From Chiloscyllium plagiosum (Eukaryota): a stretch of 41,702 nucleotides of DNA. The position numbers and the translations under genes were made by a program. Position 1 is the first letter of the stretch; each line of letters opens with the position of its first letter. The stretch is taken from the NCBI RefSeq assembly GCF_004010195.1, contig NC_057753.1:8867484-8909185 (forward strand). Direction: 5' to 3'. Under the pieces are notes generated by a model. It ran no database searches, was not told the DNA's origin, and saw only the letters and a program-made list of their open reading frames with translations. Below, one piece after another: positions 1,235 to 30,700 of the stretch.

Positions 1235-1510
1235 GCATGTCGGCCATTCAACCCATCGAGTCAACATTGACTGACTGTCCCACCCAGACCCAGTTCGTTA
1301 CCCTATCCCTGTAACCCTGCAACTCCCATGGTCAGTCTACCCTCACCTGCACATCTTTTAGACAGTGTGAGGAGGCCAGAAAACCAAAGGAAACCCACGC
1401 AGACACAAGGGGAGAATGTGCAAACTCCACACAGACAGTCGGCCCTAGGGTGGGATCAAACCCAGGTCACTGATGCCGTGAGGCAACAGTGCTAACCACC
1501 GTGCCACCAC
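1235..1510 (-). mobile_element. tRNA-derived V-SINE (HE1-like)
   Basis: The reverse complement has a tRNA-like head (GGCACGGTGGTTAGCACTGTTGCCTCAC...) and a V-domain (TGTGTGGAGTTTGCACATTCTCCCC...TCTGCGTGGGTTTCCT). Confidence 0.8.
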
Positions 1511-2189
1511 CACATGCTGCTCTCTACAGAAGTGAATTTCAAAGACTCGGGAACACTTGAGAGAAAAACAAAACTCTCCTATCTTAAATGAGAGGCCAGT
1601 CTCTGGCTAGAAATGAGTGGACATTACATTTATATTGTTAAGTTTTCTCCAGATGTCATACAGCTCCATCACACCATCTGTTTCTTCTAAACTCAAACTG
1701 ATACAACCCAGCCTGACATCCCCTTGTCCCTGATTATAAGTTGAGTAAATCAGTGACCCTCGACCTCACTGGCATGACACAGGATGCCCTCAATCCAAGT
1801 TGACCTTCACTCTCTAAACTCTTGACCCCACGCCACCATGTGGTCAGCCACAACTCAGCGCTGAACGAGAGCAGAAGAACTGACCAGACAGCAGGATCGT
1901 GGACATAGCATTCCCAGAGAATATTATTCACGTGAGAATGTTGTTCAGCTCACATTCGGATCATTGCAGCGACTATATCTCCGGTCATTTAAATGTGTTT
2001 GATCCCAATAAAAGTCCAGTTTTGTTGTACATTGTGTGTGTTTTATCTGTGTTTCGTTACATGATTTTCTGTTTCTGTAATTCTCATTAGGATGTGTGGA
2101 TTCAGTACCAGATTATAATCTCAGTTCTGAATTCCCCTTGAGGATTGGTGTAGAATGTACAAAGTGTCAATCAGAATGGAAAAAGCTCT

Positions 2190-2410
2190 CCTGTTTATTT
2201 AACCCACTGCTGTCATTGTCCTGGGACTGTATGAATGGGGAAGTTTAGAGGGCGTTTTACTCTGTATCTAATCCAATGCTGTCTCTGTCTTGGCAGCGTT
2301 TGTTGGGGACAGTGAGGTAGCTTCCCTTTCAATTTAAGAGTAGAGGAAGCTTTATTCTGATTGTAATCCCATGCTGTCCTTTTCCTGGGAGTTTTAGATG
2401 GCATCTGTAA
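2190..2410 (+). repeat. Degenerate ~67 bp minisatellite, about 3 units
   Basis: Recurring unit of the form TCTGTATCTAAxCCxxTGCTGTCxxTGTCCTGGGAxTGTxTGxTGGGGA...AGAGG. Paralog at about 29340-29560. Confidence 0.55.
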
Positions 2411-3009
2411 GTACAATGAATGCAGACTTGACTGTGGGAGTGGAGGGTACTTCTACCTGAGCACACCCATCTTTGAGATTGCTGTGCTGATCAAGACAAT
2501 CTCAGACACTTCATTCACGTTTCCAACCAACCACAGGGTGGTTAAGGGTGGATAAAAATGCTGGCATTGCCAGCGGTGCCCATACCCCATGCATGAATAA
2601 ATACTTTCTGTTTAAATATTACGTTCACGTTCCAAACCCTCTAATGTATGATTCCTTACATGGAAAATTCCTATCTGTTTGGAATATCATTTTAAAACAT
2701 AGGAATGTGTCAACCATGTAGAAATATAACAAGAGCAACAAATGGAGAATTTAACAGGTAATGAGCAGGACCAGAATGCTGAGTCAGTCTGACCTCCATG
2801 GCTGAGAGAGTTCACCCAGATGTTGAAGTTACACCAGTGCCTTTTACTCTTGCAGCTTCCCCACAAATTTGTCCCTGATGTAAGATCATTCAATGACCCG
2901 AAGAACTAACTGCTTTTATCTCCATAGCTGCTGCCAGACTTGCTGAGTAATTCCAGCACTTCTGCTTTATCCCTTTATGGGATTTGAGCTTCCCTACGTC
3001 AGTGTAATG

Positions 3010-3245
3010 AAGAACTGCAATGCTGGAGAGCTGAAACACAAAAATGCACCAATTGCTGGATAAACTCAATAGGACTGGCAGCACATGTGGAGAGAGAAGC
3101 AGAGTTGTTACCCTTTCAAGTGCTGTGACACTTCTTCACAACTGTTCTGGACTCAGGCCAGGATATTGACTTTGTTTCTTTCTCTCTCTCTCACTTTCCA
3201 CCAGTGTTGCCAGACTGGCTGAGTTTCTCCAGCAATTTCAGTTGT
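3010..3245. mobile_element. Palindromic element built from two inverted PLE-terminus-like arms
   Basis: The left arm TTGCTGGATAAACTCAATAGGACTGGCAGCAC is the reverse complement of the right arm GTGTTGCCAGACTGGCTGAGTTTCTCCAGCAA. Confidence 0.6.
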
Positions 3246-3269
3246 GACACTTTCATAAGGTTGATGTTT

Positions 3270-3590
3270 GTTATCCATCCCTAATTGCAAGGTGTGTTGC
3301 TTGTGCCAATTCAGAGGGCAGTTTAAGAGTCAACCACATTGCTGTGGGTCTGGAGTCACATGTAAGCCAGACCAGGTAAGGATGGCAGTTTCCCTCCTGA
3401 AAGGAAATTGGTGAACATGGGTTTTTATGACAATTAATGTCAGTACCATCGATACCATACTGAGACTTACTTTGTGTTCCCCATTTATGAATTGAATTAT
3501 TTACAAATCACCTCACCTCTTGCTGTGGTGGGATTTGAACTCATGTTCCCTGGATTACCCATTTTGTGACATTACGACTACATTGTTGTT
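3270..3590 (-). mobile_element. Interspersed SINE-like repeat (family also at about 4960-5190 +, 6470-7040 -, and their paralogs)
   Basis: The motifs AAGAGTCAACCACATTGxxGTxGGTCTGGAGTCACA and GGGATTTGAA recur across several copies. Confidence 0.55.
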
Positions 3591-4179
3591 TCCCATTCTT
3601 TGTTATTTTGTGTTTTGCTGTTTATGTCTTTGTCCTCTGATGTTTGGGAAATTGAACCTGTTTGAAAGTTTGCCCTAAACCTGCCCCTTTGACCAAGTTT
3701 TTGGTCACCTGTCCTAATCTGTGCTCCGGTCTTGTGATTTTTAAAGGAATTATCATTATGTTCACGTGAAGCACTCTGAGATAGTTTACTATACAGGTGT
3801 TATTTGAATGCAGTTTGTATCCCTATCTTACTCAGGAACTAGGAGAAGACAGAAATGAGGTTGATTTCTTTTCTCACTGAGGGTTGTGTGTCTTCCTCAA
3901 AAGGCAGTGGGTTCAGAATATTTTAGGCAGAGGTAGGTAGGTTCTTGATAACCAAATGGACGGAAGATTGTCGGGGATATGCTTATTGGGAGCAGACACA
4001 TTGTAGCGATTACAGTGTTTCTTGTGTTAATTTTGTTGCTTCTTACTCAATGTTGCTGAGAATCTTCTAAATAAAAACCAAAACACTTCTATTATTATCG
4101 CACCAATGGAAGTGTTGGTTTGGATGTAACATTGTTGAATTAGCCATTCCCATCTTTTCCAGAATTCTGTGTTTAAAGC

Positions 4180-4570
4180 CCTCGAGTCTGGTTTCTATCC
4201 CTGAAACAGTTCTTATCAAGGTCATGTTTGACACCCTTTCTAACGGTGACAGGGATAAACATTCCGTCGTCGACCTGTGGACAGCCTTGATCAGGGTTAA
4301 TGACAGTACTGACCCTCTCCAGCATCACTCTATCCTCTGGGAGGGTCTCCTTTTAGCGTCTTCCGTTCTGATTTGTTTAACCGTAGCTGCTGGTGTTGGC
4401 ATCTATACTGATGATATCCAACTGTGCCTGAACACCACTTCACTCCCGACTCCTCTGTCATTCATAATTTACCAATAATTTCATCTGAATGCCTGCCCAA
4501 TTTCCAGCATTGGATAACCATAAACATTCCCTTTGCTAAATATTGTGAAGGGTGAAGCCATTGTTTTAGT
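4180..4570 (+). mobile_element. Degenerate L2-clade LINE reverse transcriptase fragment
   Basis: Remnants of SGF...ETxLIKV and YTDDIQLCL (YADD-type catalytic motif). Further L2-like pieces at about 3680-3820 and 4895-4950. Paralog at about 31265-31640. Confidence 0.6.
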
Positions 4571-5234
4571 CCCCAAGTTCGACCTGAGCCCCCGCCCCTC
4601 CCCCATCCCAGTAACTCTGTTGACAGCCTTCATGTCACATTAAAACTAGGATCGATAGATTCGTGATCAGTCAGGGGATGAACAGTTACAGGAAAAGGGC
4701 AGTAACGTGGACGTGGGGAATGTCAGATCAGTCACAATCCTATTGAATGGAGAAGCAGGCTCAAGGGGTTGAATGACATTTTCCTGTTCCTATTTCTTAT
4801 GGTTCCCGAGCCCTTACCTCTGATACAGGACACTGACTTCTGTATGTGCCATTACTGAGAGTGCTGATGTTCCCTTGTGTAATATCAACAACTTAGCAGC
4901 TGCTGAAACCTCTTGGTCCTTTGTTACCTCTAAACATAATATGCCAATGTGTTCTGTGGAGGCGATGGCAGACTTTATAGTCAGCAGACTATTCACCCAG
5001 GTAATGTTCTGGGGACCTGGGTTCAGATGGTGGAATCTGAATTCAATATAAATCTGGAATTAAGATTCTAATGATGAAACCGTTGTGGTTTGTTGTAAAG
5101 ACGTATCTGGTTTCCTGCTGTCCGAATCTGATCTGATCTACATGTGATTTCAGATCCACTGCCAGCTGGTTGAATCTTCACTGCCCTTTCAGCCAATTCT
5201 TAAAGCTCACCTTTTTTAACTATAATGTTGCCAG

Positions 5235-6320
5235 AATGATTTATAGACGGCATAGGCTGGGACGTTTTTTCACTGGAATGTAGAAGGTTGCGAGTGAAGG
5301 TGATGGAGGTTTATGAAGTCATGAGGGACAAACGTAAGGTGAATAACGTTTTTTTTTTCCGAAGGATAGGGGAGTTCAAAATTTGGGAGTATATTTTTAA
5401 GATGAGAGGGAGAAGATTTAAAAAGGACGGAGGTGAGGGGCACCTTTTTTTCATATTGAAGGTGGTTCGTGTGTAGAATGAACTGTCAGAGGAAGTGGTG
5501 GATGCAGGTAATGTTACAATGTTTAAAATTATTTGGATAAGTACATATGAGCCAAACACAGGCAGATGGGTCTAATCTTTCCCCAGATATTCAAGGACAG
5601 CCAGTCAGAGGGGGGCAGCGCCACGCCTATCGTTATTGTGTGGCATGTGTGACAGCTGCAACAAGACGTCCCAACTCCTGTGCTCAATGCTCTGACCAAT
5701 GAAAGCAAGCATGCCAAAAGCCTTCTTCACCACCCGTCTACCCAGGACTCTATTTTCTAGGAGCTAATAACCCGCATATGAAACAGATTTGGTGCTTGTT
5801 GGTAGACGTTAATATTTGGCGCATATCTCTCCTCTAATTTGGTATTTTATACTGAATGCCATCATTGATGAAGTCCAATGTGCCAAATCCTGAACTTCAA
5901 AATCCCTCTGTTCAACTACACTCAAGATCTTACCATTCACCATGTACATCCCACTTTGTTTTGACTATACAAAATGTAAGACCTCATACTTAGCTATATT
6001 AAACTCCATTTACCAATAATTTTAAACTTATGCAATCTAGTTCTGGACTCTCCCACCCCCAGGTAAAAGACCTTTCCTATTTACCCCATCCATGCCCTCA
6101 TGATTTTATAAACATCTATAAAGTCACCCCTCACACTTCAAAACTTCCGGGAAAATTACCCCAGTCGATTCAGCCTCTTCCTGTACCTCAAAACCTCCAA
6201 TCCTGGCAGCATCCTTGTAAATGTTTTCTGAACCCTTTCAAGTTTCACAACCTCCTTCCTGTAGCAGAGAGCCCAGAATTGCATGCAGTATTCCAACAGT
6301 GGTGTAATCAATGTCCTCTC
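5235..6320. mobile_element. Patchwork of CR1 LINE RT/3' fragments in both orientations
   Basis: The plus strand at 5240-5580 gives LGxFSLECRRLR...VVRVxNELSEEVVDAG. Minus-strand pieces at 5655-5760 and 5880-6320 give VVKKAFGMLAFIGQSIEHRSWDVLLQL. Confidence 0.75.
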
Positions 6321-6580
6321 TGAAGAGGACTTTCAAAAATATAACTACAAGCAAATCAGGTTAGTTGGGCATGACTTTCCCATAGCAGTTTGTTTTGGTT
6401 GTCCTTCATCAATCTATGTTTTTGTTTCAGTTATGAGAAAATATTTTGTTGGATGTGATGATTGCGAGCACATCCAACATTTGCTCATTGTACCTCATGG
6501 CCATTCGACAGAGTAATTGTGACTATATGCTAGAAGGCAGTTGAGAGTCAACCACATTGTAGTAGGTCTGGAGTCACAAG

Positions 6581-6641
6581 GTGTGTGTGTGTATGTGTGT
6601 GTGTGTGTGTACGCGCGTGCGCACGTGCATACATGCATACA
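6581..6641. repeat. (GT)n microsatellite extended into a perfect purine-pyrimidine alternation
   Basis: A GT run is followed by ACGCGCGTGCGCACGTGCATACATGCATACA, giving 61 nt of unbroken alternation. Paralog at 33672-33728. Confidence 0.9.
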
Positions 6642-7139
6642 GGGTTCATGAATGGTCGATTTCCTGCCCTAAAAAGGACAGTTTCAGGAGAAACACAACA
6701 GTTCTGGTAGCATCTATGAAGAGACAACAGTGTTTCTGCTTTGAGTCCAGTGGTCCTTCAAAACTTGGCTGGATTCAAAACATTAACTGGTTTCTCTCCA
6801 CAGATGCTGCCAGACCTGCTGCGTTTCCCCAGCAATTTTGCCTTTTGTTGCTGATCTCCAACATCTGCAATTCATTATTTTAGTGAATAACTGTTTCCTG
6901 ATTGCCAGGACTGAGAGAAACTTTCACTTCCAGATCTTTTTATTAGTTGAACATAAATTCTACCAGTAGCCATGATGGGATTTGAAATTGTGTTCTCAGA
7001 AAACCGAGATCTCTAGGTTGCACAACCATCACCACTAGATCCCAATCTTCCCTTCAAAGGCAACTTTCTCCTGACTATTGTCCTATATTCATTCATGGGA
7101 TGTCGCAAGTTGTCTCCCGCTGTTGTTCTGGTTAACATC

Positions 7140-7980
7140 AACTTCACTTTCCCGCTATTTCCCCATAATCCTCAATTCCCTTTCTGATTTAAAAACAAAT
7201 CTTAGTTTTGAATGCACTTAACAATCCATCTCAACAGCTGTCCTAAAAATGCAATCCCTTATGTGCAGGTTATTCCCTTTGGTTCTAAACTCACCCAAAA
7301 GGGTAAACTTTCCCACATCTAGCCTGTCACCGCTCCTCAGAATCTTGTTTGTGACAATAAGATAACCTCGAAATATTCTAACTTCTATTAACCACAGGCA
7401 CATCCTATTCATTTCTCCTCATAAGACATTATTTCCATCCCTCATATCATCCTGGTCAACCTTCTCTGGATTGCCTCCAATGCCAGTATATCTTTCCGGA
7501 GCTAAAAGGCCCACAACTGTTCCCAGTGTTCAGTTATGGCCTAATTGGTGTCTTAATTCCCTATTACTCACTGAACTTGGATGAAGTGTTCATGGATGCG
7601 AGCTTGCAAATCATCCTATTCAGCAGCGTTCTTCATTTAACATTCAGCACTTTTCCTCCTGGCAAAGTGCACAATCTCATTTTCCCACATTCTTGTCCAT
7701 CGGCCAAGGTTTTGCTCATTTGCTTAACCTGTCGATATCCCTCTCCATGTCATCTTCACCACCTGCATTCCAATCAACTGTCTCTACTGCAGTCTTGGCA
7801 ATAATACACTCATTTCACATATCCAAGTAATTCATATCCATATTGTAAATAATTTTGGCCCCAGCACTGATCCCTGTGGCACATTGCTAGTTACAATTTG
7901 CGATCCTGAACATGCCCCTTACCCCTACTGCATCATTGGTTAGCCAATCATCTATCCATACGATTAGAGTGTCACCAATA
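7140..7980 (-). mobile_element. CR1 LINE RT fragments
   Basis: The minus strand gives RxRGxLIVTNKILR...DRLDVGKF...GEFRTKGNNL and the VPQGSVLGP motif (7855-7885). Paralog at about 34230-35100. Confidence 0.7.
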
Positions 7981-8865
7981 TCATGTGCATATCTTTGGCT
8001 CTGCAAGCAAGTCTTCCCAAACCGTCCTTGAAAAGGTGATGGTGAGCTGCCTCTTAAATTGATTCACAAATATGATGTGGTCCATAATAAAGGTTCAGGA
8101 GCGAGTTCCAGGATTTTGATCAATAAAATCGAAGCAATGCGGATATGTCACAGTTGGAATGTTGTGTTCACACTTATCTCCTCTTGCTGGTTGAAGTGAT
8201 GGAGTGGAAGTTGCTTTTGAAGAGCTGCCACTCATATAATCAAGCCAGACAGATCGATTGTGGCCAGAGACTATGCCATTTTGACTTCTCATCAATCTAC
8301 ATTCTTTCCATCCAAGTTTTAGTCAGATCAAACTGCCACGCAATGCTGTTATGGCCTCAGTAAACTATAATAACGTGAAGATCGCTGTGATAATTTTCTA
8401 CATCCGACTGAAATATAAACACAGATCATTGTTTCCAGTTTTGGTGGAACAAAAGACATCGTATTGGTGGATGATTACAGTTCGTGCATACACAGCTAGC
8501 CATCGATAAATATTAATCCTGTTCACTTCAATGGTCAAATTTTAATTCAGAAACCAAGTGCACTCGGTTGCTTGTAACATAGATAACATGACAAAATGGC
8601 TCATAGGAGGAGAAATGGGATATTGAGGAAGAGTGAAATGTTTGCTTTTGGTCACCTCCACAATTGTTAGAAAAACAGGTTGAAAGGATTCTTAAAAGGT
8701 GGCTGAAGTAATGATGTGGCATAACACTTCAGACAGCGCAAAGTGGAAGACGACTTTCTAGTGGAAGAAAAAGACATTTCTTATTTCTGAAAGAACTGGG
8801 AAACAGACGAGGGGTTGAAATCTGACTTGGGGGCTATTTCCTATTTGTTGAGGAAGTTGCTTTAT

Positions 8866-9400
8866 CACAGTCTAGGTTTCGAGCATAAGCTCTTCATCAG
8901 AAATAAAGGGTTGCCCAAGTGGGCTGAGAGATAAATGGGAAGGAAGAGGGACTGGAGGGAAGGCAGCTGGGAGTGCAATAGGTAGATGGAGGTAGGGATT
9001 GATGGTGATAGATCAGAGATGAGGGTGGAGCAAATAGGGGAGAAGCAAGGTGGACAGGTATGACAGGTCAAGAGGTTGGTGTCGAATTGGAAGGTTGGAT
9101 CTGGGACAAGGTGGGGGAGAGGAAATGAGGAAACTGATGAAATCTACATTGATCCCTTGTAATTGGAGGGTCCCAAGGCAGAAGATGAGGTGTTTTTCCT
9201 CCAAGCGTCGGGTAGCAAGAGTTTGGCAGTGGAGGAGGCCCAGGACTTGCATGTCCTTGGTGGAATGGGAGGGGGAGTTTAAGTGTCCAGCATACGCGGA
9301 CGGTGGCTTAGTTTCAGTGACGCAGAGCTGTTCGGTGAACGTTCTGCTGGTTGGCGTCCAGTTTCCCGAATTTGGATGAGACCATATTGCGAGCAATGGA
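8866..9400 (-). mobile_element. Penelope-like element 3' end (GIY-YIG C-terminus plus terminal repeat with hammerhead motif)
   Basis: Translates HLNSPSHSTKDMQVLGLLHCQTLATRRLEEKHLIFCLGTLQLQGINVDF, followed by a pyrimidine-rich UTR and CTGATGA-AGAGC-TTAT-GCTC-GAAAC at 8873-8900. Confidence 0.85.
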
Positions 9401-9416
9401 CATAATCTTATAAATA

Positions 9417-9675
9417 GATTGCGTAAATCTTAGCCTGCCGGAGTTATTTTTCTAACTAAATTAAAGGAAAACTTTAATTAAATTGGGTGACTGCATGAAA
9501 CGGTTTGATGGTCAGATTTGAATCATCACTCCCAAATGAGACAATGGATTGCGTAAATCTTAGCCTGCCGGAGTTATTTTTCTAACTAAATTAAAGAAAA
9601 CTTTAATTAAATTGGGTGACTGCATGAAACGGTTTGATGGTCAGATTTGAATCATCACTCCCAAATGAGACAATG
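9417..9675 (+). repeat. Near-perfect tandem duplication of ~130 bp
   Basis: 9417-9546 and 9547-9675 differ by about one indel. There is a single copy at the paralogous site near 36536-36665. Confidence 0.9.
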
Positions 9676-10754
9676 CCATGAATATCAGTGAACTGCTCTT
9701 TTTGTTAAAAACCACAAGTTCTTGATTTCTTTTCACAACTTACTGGTATTTGCACCTGCACATTCAATGTCAAACTCTGACATCAGAAATGAAATTACAG
9801 CTTTAATTTTGACTTACAATATTCGAACAAACAAATTAATGGCACACATTGAATACCAAGTCTGATTAATATGAAATTAAATTTGACCAAAAAATATATA
9901 AAATCAAGATGGGAGATAAGAAATGGGGGAAGGGCATAAGGCAAGAAATGCAGCATCATAGAAGGTGCTCCTCCATGGAGTGTATTTTACCAACTGCCAC
10001 TGCTAAATATAAACACTCTGAGATAATCCTCCGGTTTTAATGTAAACCATCGCCCTTTCCAGTAGGTACCATTTAAATTAATTAATAGATGCAACTCTTG
10101 AGCAAATCCAGCCTCCAGCCTTAGCCCCCGCTTCTTGGAGCTCGGACCTTCCTCCAGCTCCGGGGAATTGCAGCTACTGCCACTCCTCCACTGAAGAAGC
10201 TTTGGGAAGCAGATGTGAAGGCAAGATACAGAACAGAGCACCTTTAAAAATGAAAGCAGCTTACAGAGACATTGAGCAATAGCATCACATGGTTTTGACT
10301 CATCAACCTCTGGGTTATGTGACCTGCACATTCACGCAGAACTACTCTGCTTCTGGGCACCCAGCAGCTGGATTGTGGATCAGTTTAAAGTAGGTCCTAT
10401 ATCTCTGATTACATTGGTACACAAGGCAGTGAAGAAAGGTTTCAGTACACTGGCCTTCATCAATTTGGGAACTGAGTATAGATGTTGGCAAGTTATGTTG
10501 TAGTTATACAGGACGTTGATAAGGTTGCACCTGGAATATTGTGATCAGTTTTAGTCCCCTTGGTGTTCTGACTTCTGACTTCTTCAACTTTGCGTTTGTA
10601 TTGAACTTAATGGGATACTTTGTCCAACTCAGCATGTTTAAACAATATCTCTCAGAGGGATTCATTTGAAACTTTTCAGGAGGTGTGTTCAACAAGATTG
10701 AACTATTCGAAGTTACTTGGACTCTATTTTAAACTTACATCAGGACCAGTAGTC

Positions 10755-11130
10755 AGAGACACGTACACCATGGAAACAAACCCTTCGGTCCAACTTTTCC
10801 ATGCTGACCTGATATCTTAAATTAATCTAGTCCCATTTGACAGCACCGGACCCATATATTCTGGCAGCTCATTTCATATATGTACCACCCACTGCATGAA
10901 GAAGTTGTCCCTTTAATATATTTCGCCTCTTACTCTACATCTATGCCCCCTAGTTCTGGACTCCCACACCCCAAGGAAAGGACCTTGTCTATTACCCTGT
11001 CCATGATTTTGTAACCGCTATTAGATCACTCCTCTGCCTCCGATGCTCCAGTGAAAACTGCTGCATCCTATTCAGCCTCTCCCTGTCGCTCAAACCCTCC
11101 AACCCTCAGCAACATTCCCGTAAATCGTTT
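10755..11130 (-). mobile_element. CR1 LINE 3' end
   Basis: The reverse complement ends GGACCGAAGGGTTTGTTTCCATGGTGTAC and contains FSLEHRRQRSDL-type RT C-terminal residues. Paralog at about 37735-38130. Confidence 0.75.
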
Positions 11131-11249
11131 CTCATGGAGAAGTTAACGTTTCAGTTCTGAAGAAGGGTTAATGCCCAAAACGCTGACTACTCCACATCCT
11201 GGTGCTGCCTGGCTTGCTGTATTCTCCCAACCTCCTGCTTGCGACTTCG

Positions 11250-11566
11250 GGTTGCAATATGTAGTGGCTCAGTGGTTACCACTGCAGCCTCACAGCGCCA
11301 GGGACCCAGGTTTGTTTTCAGCCTTGGGTGGCTGTCTGTGAGGAGTTTGCACTTTCTCCCAATGTCTGCGTGGGTTTTCTCTGGGTGGTTCTGTTTTCTT
11401 CCATAAACCAAAGATGTGCAGGTCATCTGGATGGGCCTTGCTTAATTGCCCATAGAGTTAGGTACATTAATCAAAGGGAAATGGATCTGGAAGGTTTAGT
11501 CTTTGGAGGGTCGGTGTGGTATTGTTGGGACGAAAGGCCTGTTTCCACACTGTAGCTAATCTCATC
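11250..11566 (+). mobile_element. tRNA-derived V-SINE (HE1-like)
   Basis: A-box-like GTGGCTCAGTGG, V-domain GAGTTTGCACTTTCTCCC...TCTGCGTGGGTT, and LINE-like tail CTGTTTCCACACTGTAGCTAATCT. Confidence 0.8.
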
Positions 11567-11849
11567 TGCACTACTTTTGTCACTAACGAATGGCAGAGTA
11601 GACTCAACAGGCCGAATGGCCTAACTTCTGCTCCGATGGTCTTGCGGTCTTAGGTTTCTCTGGATCATTTCATTGGCAATGCGCAGTCCCGGGCTCAATG
11701 AGCAGCAGTGTGCACTGAAAGCAAAACTCATAGGATCGTAGAACTCCTACAATGTGGAAACAGGTCCGTCAGCCCAACACATCTGCACTGATCTTCTGAA
11801 GAGTAACCCACTCAGATCCATTTTCCAACCCTCCATAATGGCAGGAGGT

Positions 11850-12515
<666 letters not shown>

Positions 12516-12635
12516 TCCTTTCAAATTTCGCAATACCTTTCTGATAGGAGGGAGACCAGAATTGCACACAATATTCCCAAAGTGATCTAACCAATGTCCT
12601 GTACAGCCACAACATAACTTCCCAACTCCAATAAT
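12516..12635 (-). mobile_element. CR1 LINE RT fragment
   Basis: Translates SWEVMLWLYRTLVRSLWEYCVQFWSPSYQKGIAKFER. Confidence 0.85.
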
Positions 12636-12639
12636 CAGT

Positions 12640-13408
12640 CAGAGGATTGCGAAAGCTTTCAGAACCCACAAAAAACAAACAGGAAAGAATGGAGGGGCAA
12701 ACCGAAATTTTGAGAGTCAGCTTGGAAGCATCACTGAGAAATCGGCGGACTGGGTTTATTGGGTACCCGTTCTCCTTAAATACACTATATACGTATTTCT
12801 CTTCTGCTCTTCGTAGTTTCTCTGTGCTGCAGTGTGTAGTGGCTCATTGAAATAATGTCCTGATGCAGCTTCGTTTGTGGATGTTGGGAGTAAATCCTTC
12901 TGTGGTTAAGCACTTGGTTTGCGTGTGTTGTTTTTCTGTAGACGCCAGTTTGAAGTTCACCCTTGACTGTTCGCTCTACTGTGACATCTAAGAATGGCAC
13001 TTTGTTGTTGTTCTCCTCCTCTTCAAATCAGGAGCCACCCTCAGGCCATATTCTCACTACTTGGAATACCAATATACAGACTAGTCAAAGGCCTCCACTG
13101 AAGACTAAAACACCAAGTCGAAGATTCACGCCACTCCATTTACTCCATCCAAGAATTCCTGAATACCAAAGACACTAAGTTAGAAGAGGATGGAATAATG
13201 ATGTCCTTTGACATAACAGCCCTGTTCACATCCACTAACATCAACGTGGCCAAAGAAAACTGAAGACACTACTCGAAGAACCAAAGACACAAACACAGCA
13301 TCAACTTCATCAGCAAAGATAGCACTATCCAGCTCGTGGAACTGTGCATTACCACCCACTTCATATTCAGTAACAAGCCCGACAAACAAATCAACGAAAT
13401 ACCCTATC
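12640..13408. mobile_element. Penelope-like RT fragments, back-to-back (minus about 12640-13022, plus about 13025-13408)
   Basis: Minus: PFLDVTVERTVKGELQTGVYRKTTHANQVLN. Plus: EEDGIMMSFDITALFTS...LVELCITTHFIFSNKPDKQINEIP. Confidence 0.85.
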
Positions 13409-13908
13409 NNNNNNNNNNNNNNNNNNNNNNNNNNNNNNNNNNNNNNNNNNNNNNNNNNNNNNNNNNNNNNNNNNNNNNNNNNNNNNNNNNNNNNNNNNNN
13501 NNNNNNNNNNNNNNNNNNNNNNNNNNNNNNNNNNNNNNNNNNNNNNNNNNNNNNNNNNNNNNNNNNNNNNNNNNNNNNNNNNNNNNNNNNNNNNNNNNNN
13601 NNNNNNNNNNNNNNNNNNNNNNNNNNNNNNNNNNNNNNNNNNNNNNNNNNNNNNNNNNNNNNNNNNNNNNNNNNNNNNNNNNNNNNNNNNNNNNNNNNNN
13701 NNNNNNNNNNNNNNNNNNNNNNNNNNNNNNNNNNNNNNNNNNNNNNNNNNNNNNNNNNNNNNNNNNNNNNNNNNNNNNNNNNNNNNNNNNNNNNNNNNNN
13801 NNNNNNNNNNNNNNNNNNNNNNNNNNNNNNNNNNNNNNNNNNNNNNNNNNNNNNNNNNNNNNNNNNNNNNNNNNNNNNNNNNNNNNNNNNNNNNNNNNNN
13901 NNNNNNNN
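13409..13908. other. Assembly gap (500 N)
   Basis: Exact run of 500 N, so the true size is unknown. Confidence 1.
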
Positions 13909-13939
13909 TGTCCTCTACAGCCACAACATAACTTACTAA

Positions 13940-15060
13940 CTCCAATAGTCAGTTAGATGATTGTGAAAGCTTACAAAACCCACAAAAATCAAGCAGGAAA
14001 GAATGGAGGGACAAACCGAAGTTTTGAGAGCCAGCTTGGAAGCATCACTGAGAAATCGGCGGACTGGGTTTATTAGGTACCCCTTCTCCTTAAATACACT
14101 ATATACGTATTTCTCTTGTGCTCTTCGTAGTTTCTCTGTGCTGCAGTGTGTAGTGGCTCGTTGAAATAATATCCTGATGCAGCTTCGTTTGTGGGTGTTG
14201 GGATGATTGCTTCTGTGTTTAAGTATTTGGTTTGTGTGTGTTGTTTTCCGGTCGATGATCATTTGAAGTTCCCCATTGACTGTTCGCTCTACTGTGACAT
14301 CTAAGAATGGCAGTTTATTGTTGTTCTCCTCCTTTTCAAACCAGGAGCCCCCCTCAGGCCCATAGTCTCACGACTTGCAACACCAATATACAGACTAGTC
14401 AAAAGCCCCTACTCTAGACTAAAACACCAAGTCGAACATTCACTCCACTCCATTTACTCCATCCAAGAATTCCTGAACACCAAAGACACTAAGATAGAAG
14501 AGGATGGAATAATGATGTCCTTTGACACAACAGCCCTGTTCACTTTCATTAACATCAACGTGGCCAAAGAAAACTGAAGACACTACTCGAAGAACCAAAG
14601 TCACAAACACAGCACCAACTTCATCAGCAAAGATAACACTGTCAAGCTCGTGGAACTGTGCCTTACCACCCATTTCATATTCAGTAACAAGCCCTACAAA
14701 CAAATCAACGAAATACCCATGAAACACTTCTGTCATCAAAAAATGAAACAAATTAGAAGAAACCTACAACACCATCAACAATATCCTTACTGGCATAAAA
14801 TTCACAAAAGAGGAGAACAACACCAAAGTGCCATTTCTCGATGTCACAGCAGAGCGAACAGTCAAGGGTAAATTCAAAAGAGCCTCTCCAGGAAAAAAAC
14901 CACACGCAAACCAAATACTTGGCTACAGAAGTAATCATCCCTACACATACAAACAAATCTGAATGAGGACACTATTTCAACTAGCACTGCAGCACTCAGT
15001 GACTCCGAATACCAATAAATAACGTACAGCGCATTTAAGGAGAATGGGTAGCCAAAATAC
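13940..15060. mobile_element. Penelope-like RT fragments, back-to-back (minus about 13945-14335, plus about 14338-15060)
   Basis: Minus: RKTTHTNQILKHRSNHPNTHKRSCIRILFQRATTHCST...FKEKGY. Plus: LVELCLTTHFIFSNKPYKQINEIPM...PFLDVTAERT...FKENG. Paralogous to 12640-13408. Confidence 0.85.
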
Positions 15061-15066
15061 GCACTG

Positions 15067-15070
15067 AAAA
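15067..15070 (-). terminator. Pol III TTTT terminator after tRNA-Glu
   Basis: The minus strand reads ...CAGGGAA ATAA TTTT directly after the tRNA. Confidence 0.6.
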
Positions 15071-15074
15071 TTAT

Positions 15075-15146
15075 TTCCCTGACCGGGAATCGAACCCGGG
15101 CCGCAGGGGTGAAAGCACCGAATCCTAACCACTAGACCACCAGGGG
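15075..15146 (-). tRNA. tRNA-Glu (TTC), full length, slightly degenerate
   Basis: CCCCTGGTGGTCTAGTGGTTAGGATTCGGTGCTTTCACCCCTGCGGCCCGGGTTCGATTCCCGGTCAGGGAA. A and B boxes are intact. There is a C-A mismatch at the first acceptor pair and a T-C mismatch in the anticodon stem. Confidence 0.9.
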
Positions 15147-15183
15147 CATATTGGTGCAGCTTGCCAGCTCTAATGAAAATTGC

Positions 15184-15215
15184 TTCCCTGCCCGGAAATC
15201 GAACCCAGGCCACGG
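15184..15215 (-). pseudogene. 3' half of a second tRNA-Glu
   Basis: CCGTGGCCTGGGTTCGATTTCCGGGCAGGGAA followed by GCAATTTT. The 5' half is replaced by PLE sequence. Confidence 0.75.
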
Positions 15216-15578
15216 TCGTTCGAAGGCTTCCACCAATGTCATTTCTTGTATCCATTTCTCCCGAAGGGGTATCCTCTACAATGGGGAGATTGGAGACTCC
15301 TCACAGAGTCAAGTCACAGCGCTTGAGCGAACATCTCCAGGACACCCGCAACAATCAACGCCATCGCCCTATGGCCCAACATTTCTACCCCCCCCCCCCC
15401 CACTCTGCCGGGGACATGCAGGTCCTGGGCCTCCTCCATCGCCGCTCCGTCCCCACCCGATGCCTGGAGGAAGAACACGCCAACTTCCGCCTCGGATACA
15501 TTCAACCCCCAGGACATCAATGCGGACTTCTCAAGTGTCCACATTTCCCCTCCCTCCACCTTACCTCAGTTCCAACCT

Positions 15579-15668
15579 GAAAATGTGTTGCTGGAAAAGC
15601 GCAGCACGTCAGGCAGCATCCAAGGAACAGGAGAATCGACGTTTCGGGCATAAGCCCTTCTTCAGGAA
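15579..15668 (-). mobile_element. 90 bp PLE-terminus mini-insertion with 13 bp TSD
   Basis: Flanked by TCAGTTCCAACCT (15566-15578) and TCAATTCCAACCT (15669-15681). It is an inverted copy of about 15856-15945. Confidence 0.75.
15638..15665 (-). ncRNA. Minimal type I hammerhead ribozyme motif
   Basis: CTGAAGA-A-GGGC-TTAT-GCCC-GAAAC-GTC: intact core, 4 bp stem II, GUC triplet. Confidence 0.7.
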
Positions 15669-15859
15669 TCAATTCCAACCTTCCAGGTCCTCATGGCTTA
15701 TCCTACCTGCCAATCTCCCTTCCCACCTATCCGCTCCACCCTCCTCTCTGACCTGTCACCTCCGTCCCCACCCCCATTCACCTATTGTACTCTTTGCATC
15801 CTTCCGCCCAGCAGCCCCCAATTTATCTCGCCACCCCTGGAAGCGTGCTGCCTCTATTC

Positions 15860-15887
15860 CTGATGAAGGGCTTTTGCCCGAAACGTC
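15860..15887 (+). ncRNA. Minimal type I hammerhead ribozyme motif
   Basis: CTGATGA-A-GGGC-TTTT-GCCC-GAAAC-GTC within a PLE terminal repeat. Confidence 0.7.
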
Positions 15888-15990
15888 GATTTTCCTGCTC
15901 CTCGGAAGCTGTCTCACCTGCTGTGCTTTTCCAGCACCACTCTGATCTAAACTCTGGTTTCCAGCATCTGCTGTCCTCACTTTTGCCGAT

Positions 15991-16220
15991 CCAATAAACC
16001 TAGTGTACCGATTTCACATCAACAAACTGATACAAGCAAACACAACGTCTGCAGAAACCCTAGCCACATTACTTTACATTAAAGACATCTGTGAAATGAT
16101 GTCCAGACAACTCAACCCTCTCAGCATTAAACAGCGGCTAATGAATCTAAAATACCCTATACAAACAACCAGCAAACGAATGCTATTTATAAAATACCAT
16201 ACAAGGAAATATATACATGA
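15991..16220 (+). mobile_element. Penelope-like RT-endonuclease linker fragment (continuation of the piece ending at 15060)
   Basis: Translates ETLATLLYIKDICEMMSRQLNPLSI-KQRLMNLKYPI, then an IYKIP-like start of the GIY-YIG domain. Confidence 0.75.
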
Positions 16221-16482
16221 ACTCTGCCGCTCTGTTCTCTGTGGCAAGAAATGCTGGGATGAGATAAGGAAGATTTTTTCAGCCAAAACGAATCAGCACT
16301 GACGGGACAGCCATTTAAAATCAACGCTGTCAGGCCAGGATGGAAGACCCGAAGGGATGAACACTATTCTTATTTCCGGAAGATTTACAAAGCTGAGACT
16401 GGGTTTTGGTGTTTGTTCCCTTTCCACTCCCAGAAGCCGCAGTGGTTGGGGCGGTGAGTTGGGGAAAGTGAAATGTGCCCGC

Positions 16483-16560
16483 GAGACAGTGAAAAGAGTC
16501 TTGTTCCTGCAGATCAGGAATTCAAACCGTATGCCGGCTTCAGGACAATGAGAAAGATTA
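16483..16560 (-). repeat. Left arm of an inverted repeat with 17945-18019
   Basis: The reverse complement of 16483-16526 matches 17976-18019 at 38/44 nt, with a weaker extension containing TTTCTCATTG. Confidence 0.8.
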
Positions 16561-16599
16561 ATTGGGGTGTGTGAAGAAGCTGTGAGCTGCATTTCAAAC

Positions 16600-16720
16600 A
16601 GGTAGGTGGAGTCAGATGCGTCATCCATTGCGTGCCTGGCAATGTGCGCACCTGACGCCGCCATGATGCAGAGTTCTGACGTTAACACGGACATGCGCAG
16701 CAATAGGAACATTCACAAGA
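16600..16720. promoter_or_regulatory. Possible CpG-containing promoter-like segment
   Basis: Locally retained CpGs, with GCCGCCATG (YY1-like), CATGCGCA and TGTGCGCA (NRF1-like half sites) and two TGACG. Motif evidence only. Confidence 0.3.
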
Positions 16721-17061
16721 GGAACTGCCAAAGATAATCACCGTCACTGCTTCCCTTCCATAGTACCAACTTTGTGAAGCTGTATCTTTCACTGGCAAAT
16801 AAAACACATTAATCCTCAGGTGCCTGCTTCATTTCGATCAGGACTTCACGCCCCTCACTGTTCTAGTCTCATTTCCAAACTCCTGGCTCACAGCCTCAAA
16901 AGCAGCTCTGTGGGTATCTGCTTGTTTCACACTGACAGGCAGTGGGTTGCAGATTCCCGACCAGTCCCAATGTGATTGAAATATTTCAACCCCTCCACTG
17001 ATTTGTATCTTTAAAAAAACGGTGGAGCAATCTCCCTTTCCTTTTGACGACAGTTCTCAAC

Positions 17062-17143
17062 TGTAGTCGGCAGGGTTCACACCTGCGTGGGGAAACCTCA
17101 ATGGATTTCATGTCCATCGCTTTCACCACTCGGCCCACCAGAA
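17062..17143 (-). pseudogene. tRNA-Ser (TGA) pseudogene
   Basis: ...GGCCGAGTGGTGAAAGCGATGGACATGAAATCCATTGAGGTTTCCCCACGCAGGTGTGAACCCTGCCGACTACA has the long variable arm of tRNA-Ser. The T-loop (GTTCGA to GTGTGA) and the 5' acceptor strand are damaged. Confidence 0.85.
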
Positions 17144-17619
17144 CCACACTGACAGCTTCATTTCCCAGGTCTCTCTGCCTGTGGAGCTGAGAAAGAGTGA
17201 ATCATTGAAGAGTTTGTTTGAATCCAATCACTTCACAGGTTTCGAAAGGGTGAAATATCTGTGAATGGCGAGTCTGGGTGTTTCATCCCGAAATGGATGT
17301 TCAGTTAGAAACAAAAACAGAAATTGCAGGAGCACTCAGCAGGTCAGGCATCATCTGTGGAAAGAGAATCAGAGACAATATTTCAGAACTCTTTTTTTTT
17401 GCCTCATCCTGGTACAGCCAAACCTGCTGAGTTTCTTCAAAATTTTCTCTTTCTGTCTAGGACTCTCAGCATCCGCAGTCCGAAATTCAATCAATCCTGA
17501 AACTCCTTTGGGCTTCCTCAGAGGAGAAGACGTCCGTTTGGGAAACATTTTCCTGACACCATTAAAAACGCGCACCTTCGCAGCCAAGAAAGCGGGAGGA
17601 GAGAGAACAACAAACACCC

Positions 17620-17693
17620 AGTCTCTGGGTGGTCTCGAAGCACTAATGTCTCTGTTAACAGCCGAACGCGCTGACCAATTGCGCCACAGAGAC
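17620..17693 (-). pseudogene. tRNA-Asn (GTT), degenerate and probably a pseudogene
   Basis: GTCTCTGTGGCGCAATTGGTCAGCGCGTTCGGCTGTTAACAGAGACATTAGTGCTTCGAGACCACCCAGAGACT has mismatches in the anticodon and T stems, and no adjacent T-run terminator. Confidence 0.85.
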
Positions 17694-17944
17694 TGGTCAC
17701 GGCACTGTACGCACAGTCTCTTTGAAGAAGCTACTATTCAATTCATAATTCAACCTGCCCCGCCCAGAATTACCATGTCTTCTATCAGTTTTACTTTTCC
17801 ATAATAAAGCCTTGGACATTCATTGTGGAGACATGGGGACAGTCTGATCCCACCATCTGTAGGCACATCCATGTCACGAGGAACTAGCTCTCCTACACCG
17901 GGGCCATCGCCCTCCGAGCCTTTCAGTGTTTTGCCTCTTACCAA

Positions 17945-25466: not shown

Positions 25467-27180
25467 GATGGAAGTTTCAAAATCAATAGCTTTGCCTGAA
25501 ACATTGACTTTGCTGCTCCTCAGATGCTGCCTGATCTGCTGTGATTTTCCAGCATTGCACTTTGACTCTGACTCTCCAGTATTTGCAGTCCTCAATTTCA
25601 CGTCAATGTCTGACAGTCACTGAATCCATCGGGACTATAACAATTTTTGACTATGATTCTGTGAGAAGGAACCAAGCTTTTTGGTTCCTGTTTCAGTGCG
25701 TTTTCAGTATCAGTGAGACTGGAAGAGAGACACTACTGTAGCGAATCTAATCTCATCTAATCTAATCTACTGTTGCAGCACTCTGACTGTGGAGCCAGAA
25801 AATGTTATACAGACTAGGAAGAGCAATTCACGGCAGAGAGGTCCTGTACACGCGTTTGTGTGCAGGTGAAGCTTTGTTCATGGAGAAACTCAAGGAATCC
25901 CGTCCCGTGGAGAAACTATGGAAGTGTGGCGACTGTGGGAATAGCTTTCGTTTCCCATCTGACCTGGAGCCTCATTGGCGTAGTCACACCGGGGAGAGGC
26001 CATTCTCCTGCTCTGAGTGCGGAAAGGGCGTCAGCAATTCCTCCCGCATACTGAGGCACCAGGGGGTCTACACGGGGGAGAGGCCCTTCAGATGTCCCAA
26101 CTGCGCGAAGGCCTTCAGCCGTTCCTACTTTCTGCAGAGGCACCAGCGGGTCACACAGGCTAGAGGCCATTCGCCTGCCCCGAATACAGGAATTCCTTCA
26201 GCTATTCCTCCGTCCTGCTGACCCACCGCCTGGTCCACATATTGGAGAAGCCCTTCAGCTGCTCCAAGTTCGGGAAGGCCTTCAACGATACCTCTGCCCT
26301 GCTGAGGCACCAGCGGGTCCACACCGGGGAGAGGCCGTTCTCCTGCCTCAAGTGCAGGAAAGGCTTTACCCAGGCATCCCACCTTCGGGTCCACTCGGGA
26401 GAGAGGCCCTTCCCCGCCCAGAGTGCAGGAAGGCCTTCAGCAATTTCTCCCACCTGATGAAGCAAAGGCGGGGCCATACCGGGGAGAGGCAGTTCACCTG
26501 CCCCGAGTGCAGGCGGATGTTCTCATCATTCTGCCCCTTGCAGAAGCACCAGCGGGCACACCAGTGCTCCCAACAATCTGATTCTGCTGGTGATACTGCT
26601 GTGGGTCACTGCCAGTATTGAACACCTGCCCATTCTGACAGTGCTTATAGTGGGAGAGTCGGTCGGATTTTTTTGCTTTATGCCGTCGTGTTCCCCACCC
26701 CCGCAACTTTGCTTCCAGTGGGCGCTCCTCCTCGTTGAGCCCAGGAGCTGTTCACTCTAGTTATTTTCTGTCCAGTTAAAGAATTATTGGCTTTCTCTGG
26801 GAACAAGTCCCAGTCTGAAAGAAATAGCTGAAAACTTCAGGGTGTCCATTCGCATTCAGCAGTGACTTTGAAATTAAATTTACGGTTATGTGCCTGTGAA
26901 CAACTCATCATCGAAGGATTGCCCAACTGCTTGGCAATCCATTGTTGGAAACTGTTTGCTTGAATTGATAATTTTAAAACTTCTCTTCCTTAATTTACAC
27001 CCTAAGTTTCTGTCAATAAGATTGTGGAGGAGTTGATCAAAAGGCATAAATCATTGCTATTAACTGGATTATCTTGTTTAACTTTGCCCTCGTAAATTTG
27101 CGGTATTCATAATTGTTTGTTTTTGTTTAAATTATAATTCTGGTGTGCAAGATCTGTTCATTAAGTGTGGTCCTCTTGAT
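25467..27180 (+). repeat. Duplicated ZNF module, paralogous to about 39674-41510
   Basis: Collinear from GATGGAAGTT through the ZNF exon and 3' flank. Confidence 0.9.
25880..26621 (+). pseudogene. C2H2 zinc-finger pseudogene, 8 fingers
   Basis: Starts MEKLKESRPVEKLWKCGDCG and has TGERPF linkers. There are frameshifts near 26150 and 26415, a TAG at 26161-26163 in the finger frame, and Cys/His losses (C to Y, C to F, H to Y, H to Q). Confidence 0.9.
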
Positions 27181-27760
27181 GAAACTGCTGTGGGTCACTC
27201 CCAGGACTGACCCCCTGTGCATTCTGACAGTGTGTGTGCAGTGGGAGAGCCAGTGGGCATTTTTGTTTTATGCCCTTGCCCCGCCCTGCCCCGACGCCAA
27301 CTTTGCTTCCATTGGGCGTTGCTGCTTGTTGAGCCCAGGAGCTGTCCTCTCTAGATTCTACTGTACAGTTAAAGAATTGTTGGCTCTTTCTGGGAATGAG
27401 TCCCAATCTGTAAGAAATGGCTGAATACTTTGGGGTGTCTATTCACATTCAGCAGTGACTTTTAAATTAGATTTACAGTTACGTGTCTGCGAAAAACGCA
27501 TAGTCCAAGAATTGCACAAAGGCTTGGCAATCCATTGTTGGAAACTGCTTGTTTGAATTGGCAAGTTTAAAAAAAATATTTCTTAATTTGCCACTTAAAT
27601 TTCTGTCTCTGAGATGGTGGGGACTTGATTAAAGGGTTTAAATCATTGCTATAAATTAGATGATCTTGTTTAACTTTACCCCAGAAAAGTTGCCGTATTT
27701 ATAATTTGTTGGTTTTTGTTTAAATTATAATGTTGATGTGCAAGATCTGTTCTTCATCAA
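26595..27760 (+). repeat. Diverged tandem duplication (~585 bp) of the ZNF tail/3' flank
   Basis: ACTGCTGTGGGTCACT...TGTGCAAGATCTGTTC occurs at about 26595-27160 and again at about 27184-27755. The same arrangement is seen at about 40934 and 41514. Confidence 0.85.
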
Positions 27761-30700
27761 GTCTGGTTAGGAACAGTTGAGAAATTGAGGGACATTGCAT
27801 GTTTTAATTTCACTGTGTTGTGAATCTGATAGCAGTAACACTCATTTGTATTGGGTTGCTTACCCTTATTTGTAATGTCTTTCACCCCAACTATTCACTA
27901 TGGTCGTGAGTTCCACAGTCGGGGAACTTGAGGATTGGTGTAGAACGTACTAAGTGTCAGTCATAATGGAAGAAGCTCGACTGTTTATTTAACCCTTTGC
28001 TGGCATTGTCCTTGGACTGTATGAATGGGGACGTGTAGAAGGAGTTTTACTCTGTATCTCACCACACTCTTAGAGTTTTCATGAAATCCTTAGTACACAA
28101 TTGTAAGGGAAAATGTTGACGAGGGCAGAATATAGAGTCTTAAGTGCAAAAGCCAGGAAGACATTCGACAAAGTAAGACCATGACAATGTAGGGACAAAT
28201 AAGGAACTTTGACAGCAATGAAGAGGTCACAGGTCAGAGTTCAAGATAATGGTCGTGACAAAAAGAAAAAGTGCTCTGCAGATATTGGATATTGTAATTA
28301 AGCAAGTTTCTAGATGCTGTAGTTGGTTGAATACGATAACGTAAGAGATGAAATAACCAAAACCACTCATGTAATTTGATGTCGGTAACCATAAAGCAAG
28401 TGTATGCTATTGACTAATATAGGTCAATAGCATGCAAGTAGGCCATTCAGGCCATCGAGTCAACATTGACTGACCGTCCCACCAAGACCCAGTTCGTTAC
28501 CCTATCTCTGTAACCCTGCATCTCCCATGGTAAATCTACCCTCACCTGCACATCCTTTGGATTGTGGGAGGAGGCCAGAGCACCAGAGGAAACCCACACA
28601 GACACAAGGGGAGAATGTGCAAACTCCACACAGACAGTCGGCCCGAGGGTGGGATCAAACCCAGGTCACTGATGCCACCACCACATGCTGCTCTCTAAAG
28701 AAGTGAATTTCAAAGACTCGGGAACACTTGAGAGAAAAACAAAGCTCTCGTATCTTAAATGAGAGGCTAGTCTCTGGCTAGAAATGAATGGATATTACAT
28801 TTACATTAAGTCCTCTCCAGATGTTATACAGCTTCATCAGATCATCTGTTTCTTCTAAACTCAAACTGATACAAGCCCAGCCTGACATCCCCTTGTCCCT
28901 GATTATAAGTTGAGTAAATCAGCGACCTCACTGGCATGACACAGGATGCCCTCAATCCAAGTTGACCTTAATTGTCTAACCTCTTGACCCCCACGCCACC
29001 ATGTGGTCAGCCGCAACTCAGCCCTGAACGAGAGCAGAGGAACTGAATAGACAGCAGTGAGGTGGACATTGCATTCCCAGAGAATATCGTTCAAGTGAGA
29101 AAGTTGTTCAGCTCACATTCGGATCATTGCAGGGACAATGTCTCCTGTCATTTTAATATCTTAGATCCCAATAACAGTCTAGTTTTGTTGTACATTTTGC
29201 GTGTTTTACCTGATTTTCTGTTGCTGTCATTCCCATTAGGGTGTGTGAATTCAGTACCGGATAATAGTCTCAGTTCTGAATTATCCTTGAGGATTGGTGT
29301 AGAACGTACTAAGTGTCAGTCATAATGGAAGAAGCTCTACTGTTTATTTAACCCTTTGCTGGCATTGTCCTTGGACTGTATGAATGGGGAAGTGTAGAGT
29401 GAGTTTTACTCTGTATCGAACCCAATGCTCTCTCTGTCTTGTCAGTGTTTGTTGGGGACAGTGTTGAGGTAGCTTCATTTTCAATTTAAGAGTAGAGGAA
29501 GCTTTATTCTGATTGTAATCCCATGCTGTCCTTTTCCTGCGAGTGTGAGATGGCATCTGTAATTGAAGTGAATGCAGACTTGCTGTGGGAGTGGAGGGTA
29601 CTTCTACCTGAGCACACCCATCTTTGAGATTGCTGTGCTAATCAAGACAATCTCAGACACCTTCATTCACTTTTCCAACCAACCACAGGGTGGTTCAGGC
29701 TGGATAAAAATGCTGGCATTGCCAGCGATGCCCACACCCCATGCATGAAAAAATACTTTTTGTTTAAAAGTTACATTCACGTTCCAAACCCTCTAATGTA
29801 TGATTACTTACATGGAAAATTCCTGTGTGTTTGGAATATCATTTTAAAACAGACGAATGTGTCAACCATGTAGAAATATAACAAGAACAACAAATGGAGA
29901 AGTTAACAGGTAATGAGCAGGACCAGAATGCTGAGTCAGTCTGACCTCCGTGGCTGAGAGAGTTCTCCCAGATGTTGAAGTTACACTAATGCCTTTTACT
30001 CTTGCAGCTTCCCCAAAAGTTTGTCCCTGATGTAAGATCATTCAACGACCCGAAGAACTAACTATTTTTATCTCCATAGCTGCTGCCAGACTTGCTGAGT
30101 AATTCCATCCCTTCTGCTTTATTCTTTTATCGGATTTGAGCTTCCCTCAGTCAGTGTAATGAAGAACTGCAATGCTGGAGATCTGAAACACAAAAATGCA
30201 CCAATTGCTGGAGAAACTCAACAGGACTGGAAACACAAGTGGAAAGAGAAGCAGAGTTAGCATCACAACTGTTCTGGACGCAGGCCAGGACATTGACTCC
30301 GTTTCTTTCTCTCTCTCTCTCTCTCTCCACCGGTGTTGCCAGACTGGCTGAGTTTCCCCAGCAATTTTTGTTCTGACACTTTCACAAGGTTGATGTTTGT
30401 TATCCATCCCTAAGTGCAAGGTGTCTTGCGTATGCCAATTCAGAGGGCAATTTAAGAGTCAACCACATTGCTGTGGGTCTGGAGTCACATGTAAGCCAGA
30501 CCAGGTAAGGATGGCAGTTTCCCTCCTGAAAGGACATTGGTAAACATGGGTTTTTATGACAATTGACGTCAGTGCCATCGATACCATACTGAGACTAACT
30601 TTGTGTTCCCCATTTATGATTTGAATTATTCACATCTCACCTCTTGCTGTGGTGGGATTTGAACTCATGTTCCCTGGATTACTCATCCTGTGACATTACA

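Follow-up and report, generated by a model that had tools for sequence, protein, structure and literature searches.

The window analysed here is a stretch of 41,702 nucleotides on contig C44 of the Chiloscyllium plagiosum genome, for which an assembly of 3.56 Gb was searched. It holds two N gaps and lies in an amplified region, positions 74-11252 and 27173-38244 being the copies of a duplication with a 27-kb spacing and 90-93% identity; the tandem arrays within these duplications are presumably of the C2H2 type. Segments 12595-13404 and 13909-14718, which flank an N gap and are 91.5% identical, represent either a true duplication or scaffolded paralogs. The feature of interest is a cassette (15063-15987) that consists of a full tRNA-Glu gene and a tRNA-Glu 3' half, both antisense, and a 5'-truncated Penelope-like element (PLE), and that interrupts another PLE, of the Poseidon type. 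On the plus strand, the order of the insert is target, antisense trailer, gene and leader, antisense trailer and half gene, sense PLE tail, target.

The outer, Penelope/Poseidon-type element is represented by a broken left piece of the reverse transcriptase (RT) region (14338-15062, plus strand) and by a right piece (15988-16207, plus strand) that continues it. The first-pass annotation had assumed that these pieces are parts of one element, and alignment to dispersed copies of the family (the left piece being collinear with L025, L030, L036 and L028) bears this out: the pieces are contiguous and do not come from different subfamilies. Specifically, the match of the left piece (to 15055) extends to locus position 1522 in L028, and that of the right piece (from 15991) begins at locus position 1519 in L025 and L030; across the 20 outer-family copies that were fetched, the right piece takes up where the left one stops, apart from a short overlap. 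The family yields 823 pattern matches in the genome. Pfam gave no match for the window's own broken PLE fragments; in the family copy L028, it reports RVT_1 with an E-value of 1.1e-4, under the cutoff, and another copy, L022, encodes RT and GIY-YIG domains without the CX2-5CxxC linker, which is the hallmark of the Penelope/Poseidon type.

The cassette is bounded by a target-site duplication. The right copy (15988-16001, plus strand), defined by comparison of right junctions, reads TACCCAATAAACCC at most of the 23 such junctions and is identical at 13 of 14 positions to the left copy in the less-derived paralogs L018, L043, L053 and L127, where the latter reads TAGCCAATAAACCC. In the window itself, the left copy (15049-15062, plus strand) has decayed, with 8 of the 14 positions still identical; it falls within the hypervariable 3' flank of the tRNA. 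The direct repeat matching at 7 of 9 positions that had been noted here is thus present as described, but it is the decayed part of a longer duplication, which we estimate at 12-14 bp because copies of the inner PLE family commonly end at 15987, often followed by TA. Given a 14-nt duplication, the left junction lies 4 nt past the T4 run rather than about 6 nt past the Pol III terminator, as originally thought. A single duplication encloses the tRNA pair and the inner PLE together.

Both tRNA units, first described as a full tRNA-Glu and a 3' half on the minus strand, each with a TTTT run, were recovered, the full gene by ARAGORN and Rfam, the half from the sequence and in paralogs. The full gene (15075-15146, minus strand; 44.9 bits in Rfam) has the anticodon TTC (CTC in the basal clade) and is followed by a 12-nt 3' trailer with the T4 run (15063-15074, minus strand). 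Its leader (15147-15171, minus strand), in which positions -16 to -3 are hypervariable across copies, is 25 nt long and thus exceeds the leaders of 2-5 nt that are cited in PMC6130373. Upstream follow the 12-nt, TTTT-containing trailer of the half (15172-15183, minus strand) and the 3' half itself (15184 to approximately 15224, minus strand), which extends roughly from the anticodon arm to the acceptor stem, its 5' boundary being approximate; the spacer between the full and half genes is 37 nt. In older copies the two trailers are identical, and each ends 4 nt past the T4 run, not within it. Simple tandem duplication is not expected to place the truncated unit upstream of the full one, because the partial copy would then lie downstream, as is the case in L020. 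The window's full gene differs from the gene in L099 by 4 changes outside the anticodon. Its pairing is non-standard at the acceptor end and within the anticodon stem, and this particular copy is probably impaired. The T4 run of the half (15176-15181) lies some 30 nt 5' of the full gene, close to the TBP-binding place, and is more TATA-like in one young subfamily; that it might aid transcription is speculation.

The inner PLE (approximately 15225-15987, plus strand) is collinear with dispersed copies at 75-84% identity, in agreement with its initial assignment to a second family as a 5'-truncated GIY-YIG element; the truncation falls in the GIY-YIG region, and the 3' end, with the pLTR, is intact. 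This family is abundant, with 2905 overlapping pattern matches. According to PMC8557442, Neptune/Nematis PLEs possess a C-terminal GIY-YIG domain with CCHH and an upstream CX2-5CxxC motif. The family copy L089 carries C-X4-C-xx-C ahead of a GIY-YIG-like core, through which the inner element is classified as an EN+ PLE of the Neptune/Nematis type; Pfam detects GIY-YIG in a family copy with an E-value of 0.0034, under the cutoff. Many dispersed copies end at 15987 (seen as loose ends in 4 of 4 sequencing runs), and this position adjoins the right-hand target-site repeat. No separate duplication belongs to the inner PLE: the bases that precede its 5' end are not repeated after the 3' end. Rfam found no hammerhead match; near 15860-15885, the pLTR contains what we take to be hammerhead-like core boxes with a 4-bp stem II (z 0.2). 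An inverted pLTR piece at 15580-15669 (minus strand), up to 95-97% identical to dispersed copies, is missing from every paralog that spans the spot; hence there is a single ancestral pLTR, at the 3' end of the inner PLE, and the second one is a later, young insert found only in the window. The window copy also lacks 12 PLE bases beside the junction with the half tRNA that older copies have. In one polyA RNA run (n=1), coverage is essentially confined to the generic pLTR and has no bearing on tRNA expression.

The junction between the tRNA half and the inner PLE recurs throughout the genome. All 40 scored candidates (out of 721) matched, 39 of them elsewhere, at 77-88% identity, so the cassette exists in at least 40 copies, a multiplicity that had escaped the first-pass annotation. 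That annotation saw here a possible route for spreading tRNA genes complete with their terminators. Comparison of the flanks contradicts repeated retrotransposition: all 40 places share at least one flank and the insertion point with the window. Thus, rather than a mobile family, the cassette is one old insertion that was amplified as part of a ZNF/tRNA segmental unit, and it spread by segmental duplication after a single founding event. A mobile composite, SINE-like or otherwise non-autonomous, might have been suspected from the copy number and from the combination of an internal Pol III promoter with a PLE 3' end; however, independent sites with duplications of their own are absent among the 40 scored places, and the promoter points away from the PLE, which leaves this possibility with hardly any credibility.

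The core of the amplified unit (11839-17800) comprises, in an order repeated on C44 and on small contigs, a ZNF array, an inverted PLE piece, the cassette, a tRNA-Ser-like relic and a tRNA-Asn gene. Between 8.80 and 9.44 Mb of C44 (6% N), 10 units carry the tRNA pair, an eleventh has just the half and a twelfth just the right junction, and most of the units are ordered in this manner; the small-contig copies may include allelic duplicates. DNA runs of three organisms, possibly not including the window's species, cover the unit-specific right flank, and two contigs from these runs cross the right junction but extend just 17 and 12 letters into the PLE, below the bar of 31 letters. Cassette copies account for 27 of the 42 distinct places that match a tRNA-Glu 5' pattern (an exact-match search and, accordingly, incomplete).

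Phylogenetic analysis of 33 units, with four paired dispersed copies as the root and without poorly covered or doubly fetched units, gives a star-like tree whose tips lie 0.04-0.06 from its base. Within it, L127, the half-only unit, is nested with 100% support, so the combination of half and full genes is ancestral; L127 as the ancestral state was therefore rejected, and this unit is likely to be a collapse between the two 3' halves. Other rearrangements of the cassette include a 3' half duplicated downstream (L020), D-arm repeats (L046) and a cassette in tandem (L057). Among the 41 aligned units, the anticodon is TTC in 24, CTC in 16 and GTC in one (L059, a Glu body with the anticodon of Asp); the basal clade has CTC, and the anticodon changed from CTC to TTC, and once to GTC, as the copies drifted. 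Separately, ARAGORN assigns copies of the unit's Asn gene at 8.94-9.26 Mb of C44 to Lys(TTT), His(GTG) and Asn(ATT).

How did the founding cassette arise? We consider it fairly probable that it was produced in one insertion, by twin priming combined with a template jump, and was then copied, with its flanks, at least 40 times. Under this scenario, the PLE endonuclease would have cut the target with a stagger of 12-14 nt, and reverse transcription would have started from the 3' end of the PLE RNA, at the right junction. For the other target end, the template would have been an unprocessed tRNA-Glu transcript, with priming at its 3' end, 4 nt past the T4 run, such that the trailer, the gene and the leader were copied; the enzyme then would have jumped to the 3' end of a second RNA of the same kind and stopped in the anticodon arm, after which the two cDNAs were presumably joined. 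Twin priming is expected to yield an antisense piece starting at the RNA 3' end, and end-to-end jumping a second unit with a common start that is cut short. The subsequent amplification of the block as part of the ZNF/tRNA unit is shown by the shared flanks and the star-like tree. Having an internal promoter and having brought its terminator with it, the full gene was probably transcribed by Pol III in its new location, as two DNA records suggest; the copies then drifted. The original proposal that a PLE insertion co-mobilised tRNA sequence, by second-strand priming or template switching, accordingly stands as the best-supported reading, given the single enclosing duplication, the natural 3' end of the PLE, the antisense tRNA that starts just past its terminator and the contiguity of the outer PLE, and the refuting conditions set out with it did not overturn it. 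The search for an empty site in this genome, suggested along with that proposal, returned only the filled junction of L018, which is why we infer the single-event timing from the structure of the insert.

The alternative of two insertions can be envisaged in either order: the PLE, with its duplication, was already in place when a stand-alone pre-tRNA concatemer landed at the PLE 5' end, possibly with a loss of PLE bases, or the concatemer preceded the PLE, which then entered at the concatemer's 5' edge. Stand-alone tRNA-Glu copies are common in the genome, and a locus on another chromosome (contig C34, 28.27 Mb; L068, L095:8427-8708) provides a case of a concatemer that landed antisense at the edge of an older retroelement. 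This concatemer is head-to-tail, with two 5'-truncated tRNA-Glu units upstream of one full unit, the same order as in the cassette; the units are 98-100% alike, and each ends at a common point followed by a short A run. The full unit has a 3-nt leader and a trailer that runs about 57 nt into outer-PLE sequence found only in cassette copies; it matches the subfamily of L044, L051 and L057, and its own T4 run is broken. Judging from these features, it is most simply explained as a young retrocopy of a read-through transcript from a cassette gene, in which case at least one cassette copy would have been transcribed in the germ line. The concatemer adjoins, in the antisense orientation, the 5' edge of a LINE piece that we assume to be CR1-like; an N gap at this place hides any duplication around it. 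The LINE piece is at best 87% identical to 39 other scored copies, to be compared with 98-100% among the tRNA units, so co-insertion with the LINE was rejected, the LINE being the older element. Since the concatemer is far younger than the adjoining LINE, such an appearance can arise without co-insertion. The C34 locus therefore appears to support the formation of concatemers but cautions that adjacency does not amount to co-insertion, and for this reason, the single-event reading of the cassette rests on the enclosing duplication. Two insertions nevertheless remain the unlikely account: the second event would have had to stop only a few bases from the boundary of a duplication already present, without leaving one of its own, and the rooted tree contains no unit that has the PLE but not the tRNA half.

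Another alternative, which we regard as distinctly improbable, invokes a donor that has since been lost and from which the cassette was derived by 5' transduction or DNA-templated copying; in this case, a PLE residing in the upstream gene of a tight tRNA-Glu pair gave rise to a read-through RNA that carried both the pair and the PLE to the present site. With a donor of this kind, the 25-nt leader would be genomic spacer, as would the 4 nt that follow each T4 run, and PLEs can carry host DNA, as reported in PMC3846280. However, the search for a PLE 3' end joined to the missing 5' half yielded no matches, and neither did that for an intact tRNA-Glu pair with a spacer of 20-50 nt; furthermore, truncation 4 nt past the terminator would be a matter of chance, and the cargo does not lie between pLTRs. 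Searches of the incomplete assembly with exact-match patterns likewise failed to find, outside the unit, a source gene with the leader or the trailer of the cassette, all 6 places recovered with the trailer pattern being of the cassette type. None of the 16 dispersed tRNA-Glu copies is within 700 nt of a PLE probe match, and searches for independent chimeras of PLE and tRNA returned two places, both with a SINE plus a pLTR and without a detected duplication; a further search returned none.

Among these 16 dispersed copies, 6 (L062, L063, L066, L067, L167 and L170) have a short trailer joined in the same sense to the 5' end of a SINE, presumably HE1-like, with all the trailers being different; from their sequences, these joins are likely to be template-switch chimeras between pre-tRNA and SINE. 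Near-intact tRNA-Glu genes located outside the unit (L099, L100, L070, L071 and L166) have longer T runs, and none has the flanks of the cassette; L100 contains a convergent pair of them 283 nt apart.

The first of our lines of evidence on the activity of the cassette genes after the amplification comes from the distribution of substitutions around them. Using a tree derived from the PLE columns of 41 units, we found 10.6 changes per site at -16 to -3 and 3.9 at +2 to +25, compared with 1.2 and 1.7 in PLE DNA on the same tree; the rate at -16 to -3 is thus six to nine times higher, the pattern holds with or without CpG sites, and the highest value among 476 neutral 14-nt windows is 3.1. In terms of diversity in the same 41 units, the values are 0.57 at -16 to -7, 0.33 in the trailer region and 0.10-0.12 in PLE DNA. 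The tRNA-Asn gene of the unit shows the same upstream peak (0.585 in 16 copies), and the decayed tRNA-Ser-like gene shows none (0.044 in 26 copies), with flanks at about 0.1. According to PMC6130373, variability around active tRNA genes peaks 10-15 nt upstream, with a lesser peak downstream. The hypermutable inner flanks resemble this signature of active tRNA genes, so that the cassette copies likely are, or have been, transcribed. The gene body is not clearly conserved (0.053 versus 0.064 differences per site; 1.8 changes per site versus 1.2-1.7 in PLE DNA); a raised mutation rate could mask selection on it. At most one change separates 7 of the 41 copies from the L099 gene, and 20 of the 41 keep a T4 run within 15 nt. 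A second hypervariable patch, with 4.9 changes per site, occupies 15212-15221 within the half tRNA, 66-75 nt 5' of the full gene, and could reflect another Pol III start or nuclease exposure.

It is likely, then, that a jumping gene seeded a new family of tRNA genes. The more inclusive scenario, in which a PLE RT used both target ends as primers and, by switching from one pre-tRNA to another, assembled a functional Pol III gene in a single step, and in which segmental duplication then turned this gene into the majority of the genome's tRNA-Glu loci of its type, with repeated anticodon switches and further retrocopies, amounts to a family founded by an error of a retroelement; we advance it tentatively, with the doubts slightly outweighing the confidence. 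How PLEs make their inverted 5' ends is described in PMC8557442 as still undefined. A foreign RNA copied antisense at that 5' place, inside the duplication, would be direct fossil evidence for second priming at the other target end and for template jumping. Moreover, a tRNA gene apparently can be born with its promoter and terminator intact, the reported chimeras of tRNA and LINE-1 being mostly fragments; and with the 41 aligned paralogs, nature has supplied an experiment on mutagenesis by Pol III transcription and on the switching of anticodons. These implications are tempered by the published LINE-1 counterpart of the mechanism, the single founding event and the decay of many copies. In the literature searched, from which most subscription journals are excluded, there is no PLE/tRNA chimera and no retro-born tRNA gene family in sharks; PMC8869645, considered for comparison, concerns Dada transposons and does not apply.

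The closest known counterparts are the 21 tRNA/LINE-1 chimeras of Law and Burns (Cell Genomics 2026; PMC13174262), which are described as mostly antisense halves (nt 1-37) with duplications of 9-19 bp, and for which twin priming was proposed. The arrangement is alike, with the tRNA antisense at the 5' end of a retroelement and both within one target-site duplication. Unlike these chimeras, the partner here is a GIY-YIG PLE, so that the cassette would work alike without being a member of that group; what was carried along is a complete gene, including leader, trailer and T4 run, together with a 3' half, as against mostly half-length pieces in the LINE-1 chimeras (Table S3 of the same article may hold full-length cases); and the product has been amplified and looks transcribed. 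Penelope elements of Adineta vaga, as described in PMC3846280, carry copies of host protein-coding genes between pLTRs, with a duplication of 8-10 bp. There as here, the PLE machinery appears to add host-gene copies inside the duplication; inverted 5' pieces are typical of PLE insertions (PMC3846280, PMC8557442), and in contrast to the Adineta case, the cargo here replaces that usual inverted piece, is a Pol III transcript and is not framed by pLTRs. The head-to-tail cDNA that R2 makes from successive RNA templates, each from the RNA 3' end, is a further likeness, shown for R2 and proposed for the PLE enzyme here. Finally, the peak of variability upstream of the gene and the smaller one downstream are shared with the active tRNA genes of PMC6130373; unlike in that work, the pattern is seen here across paralogs of a single genome, and conservation as strong as in active human tRNA genes is not observed in the gene bodies.
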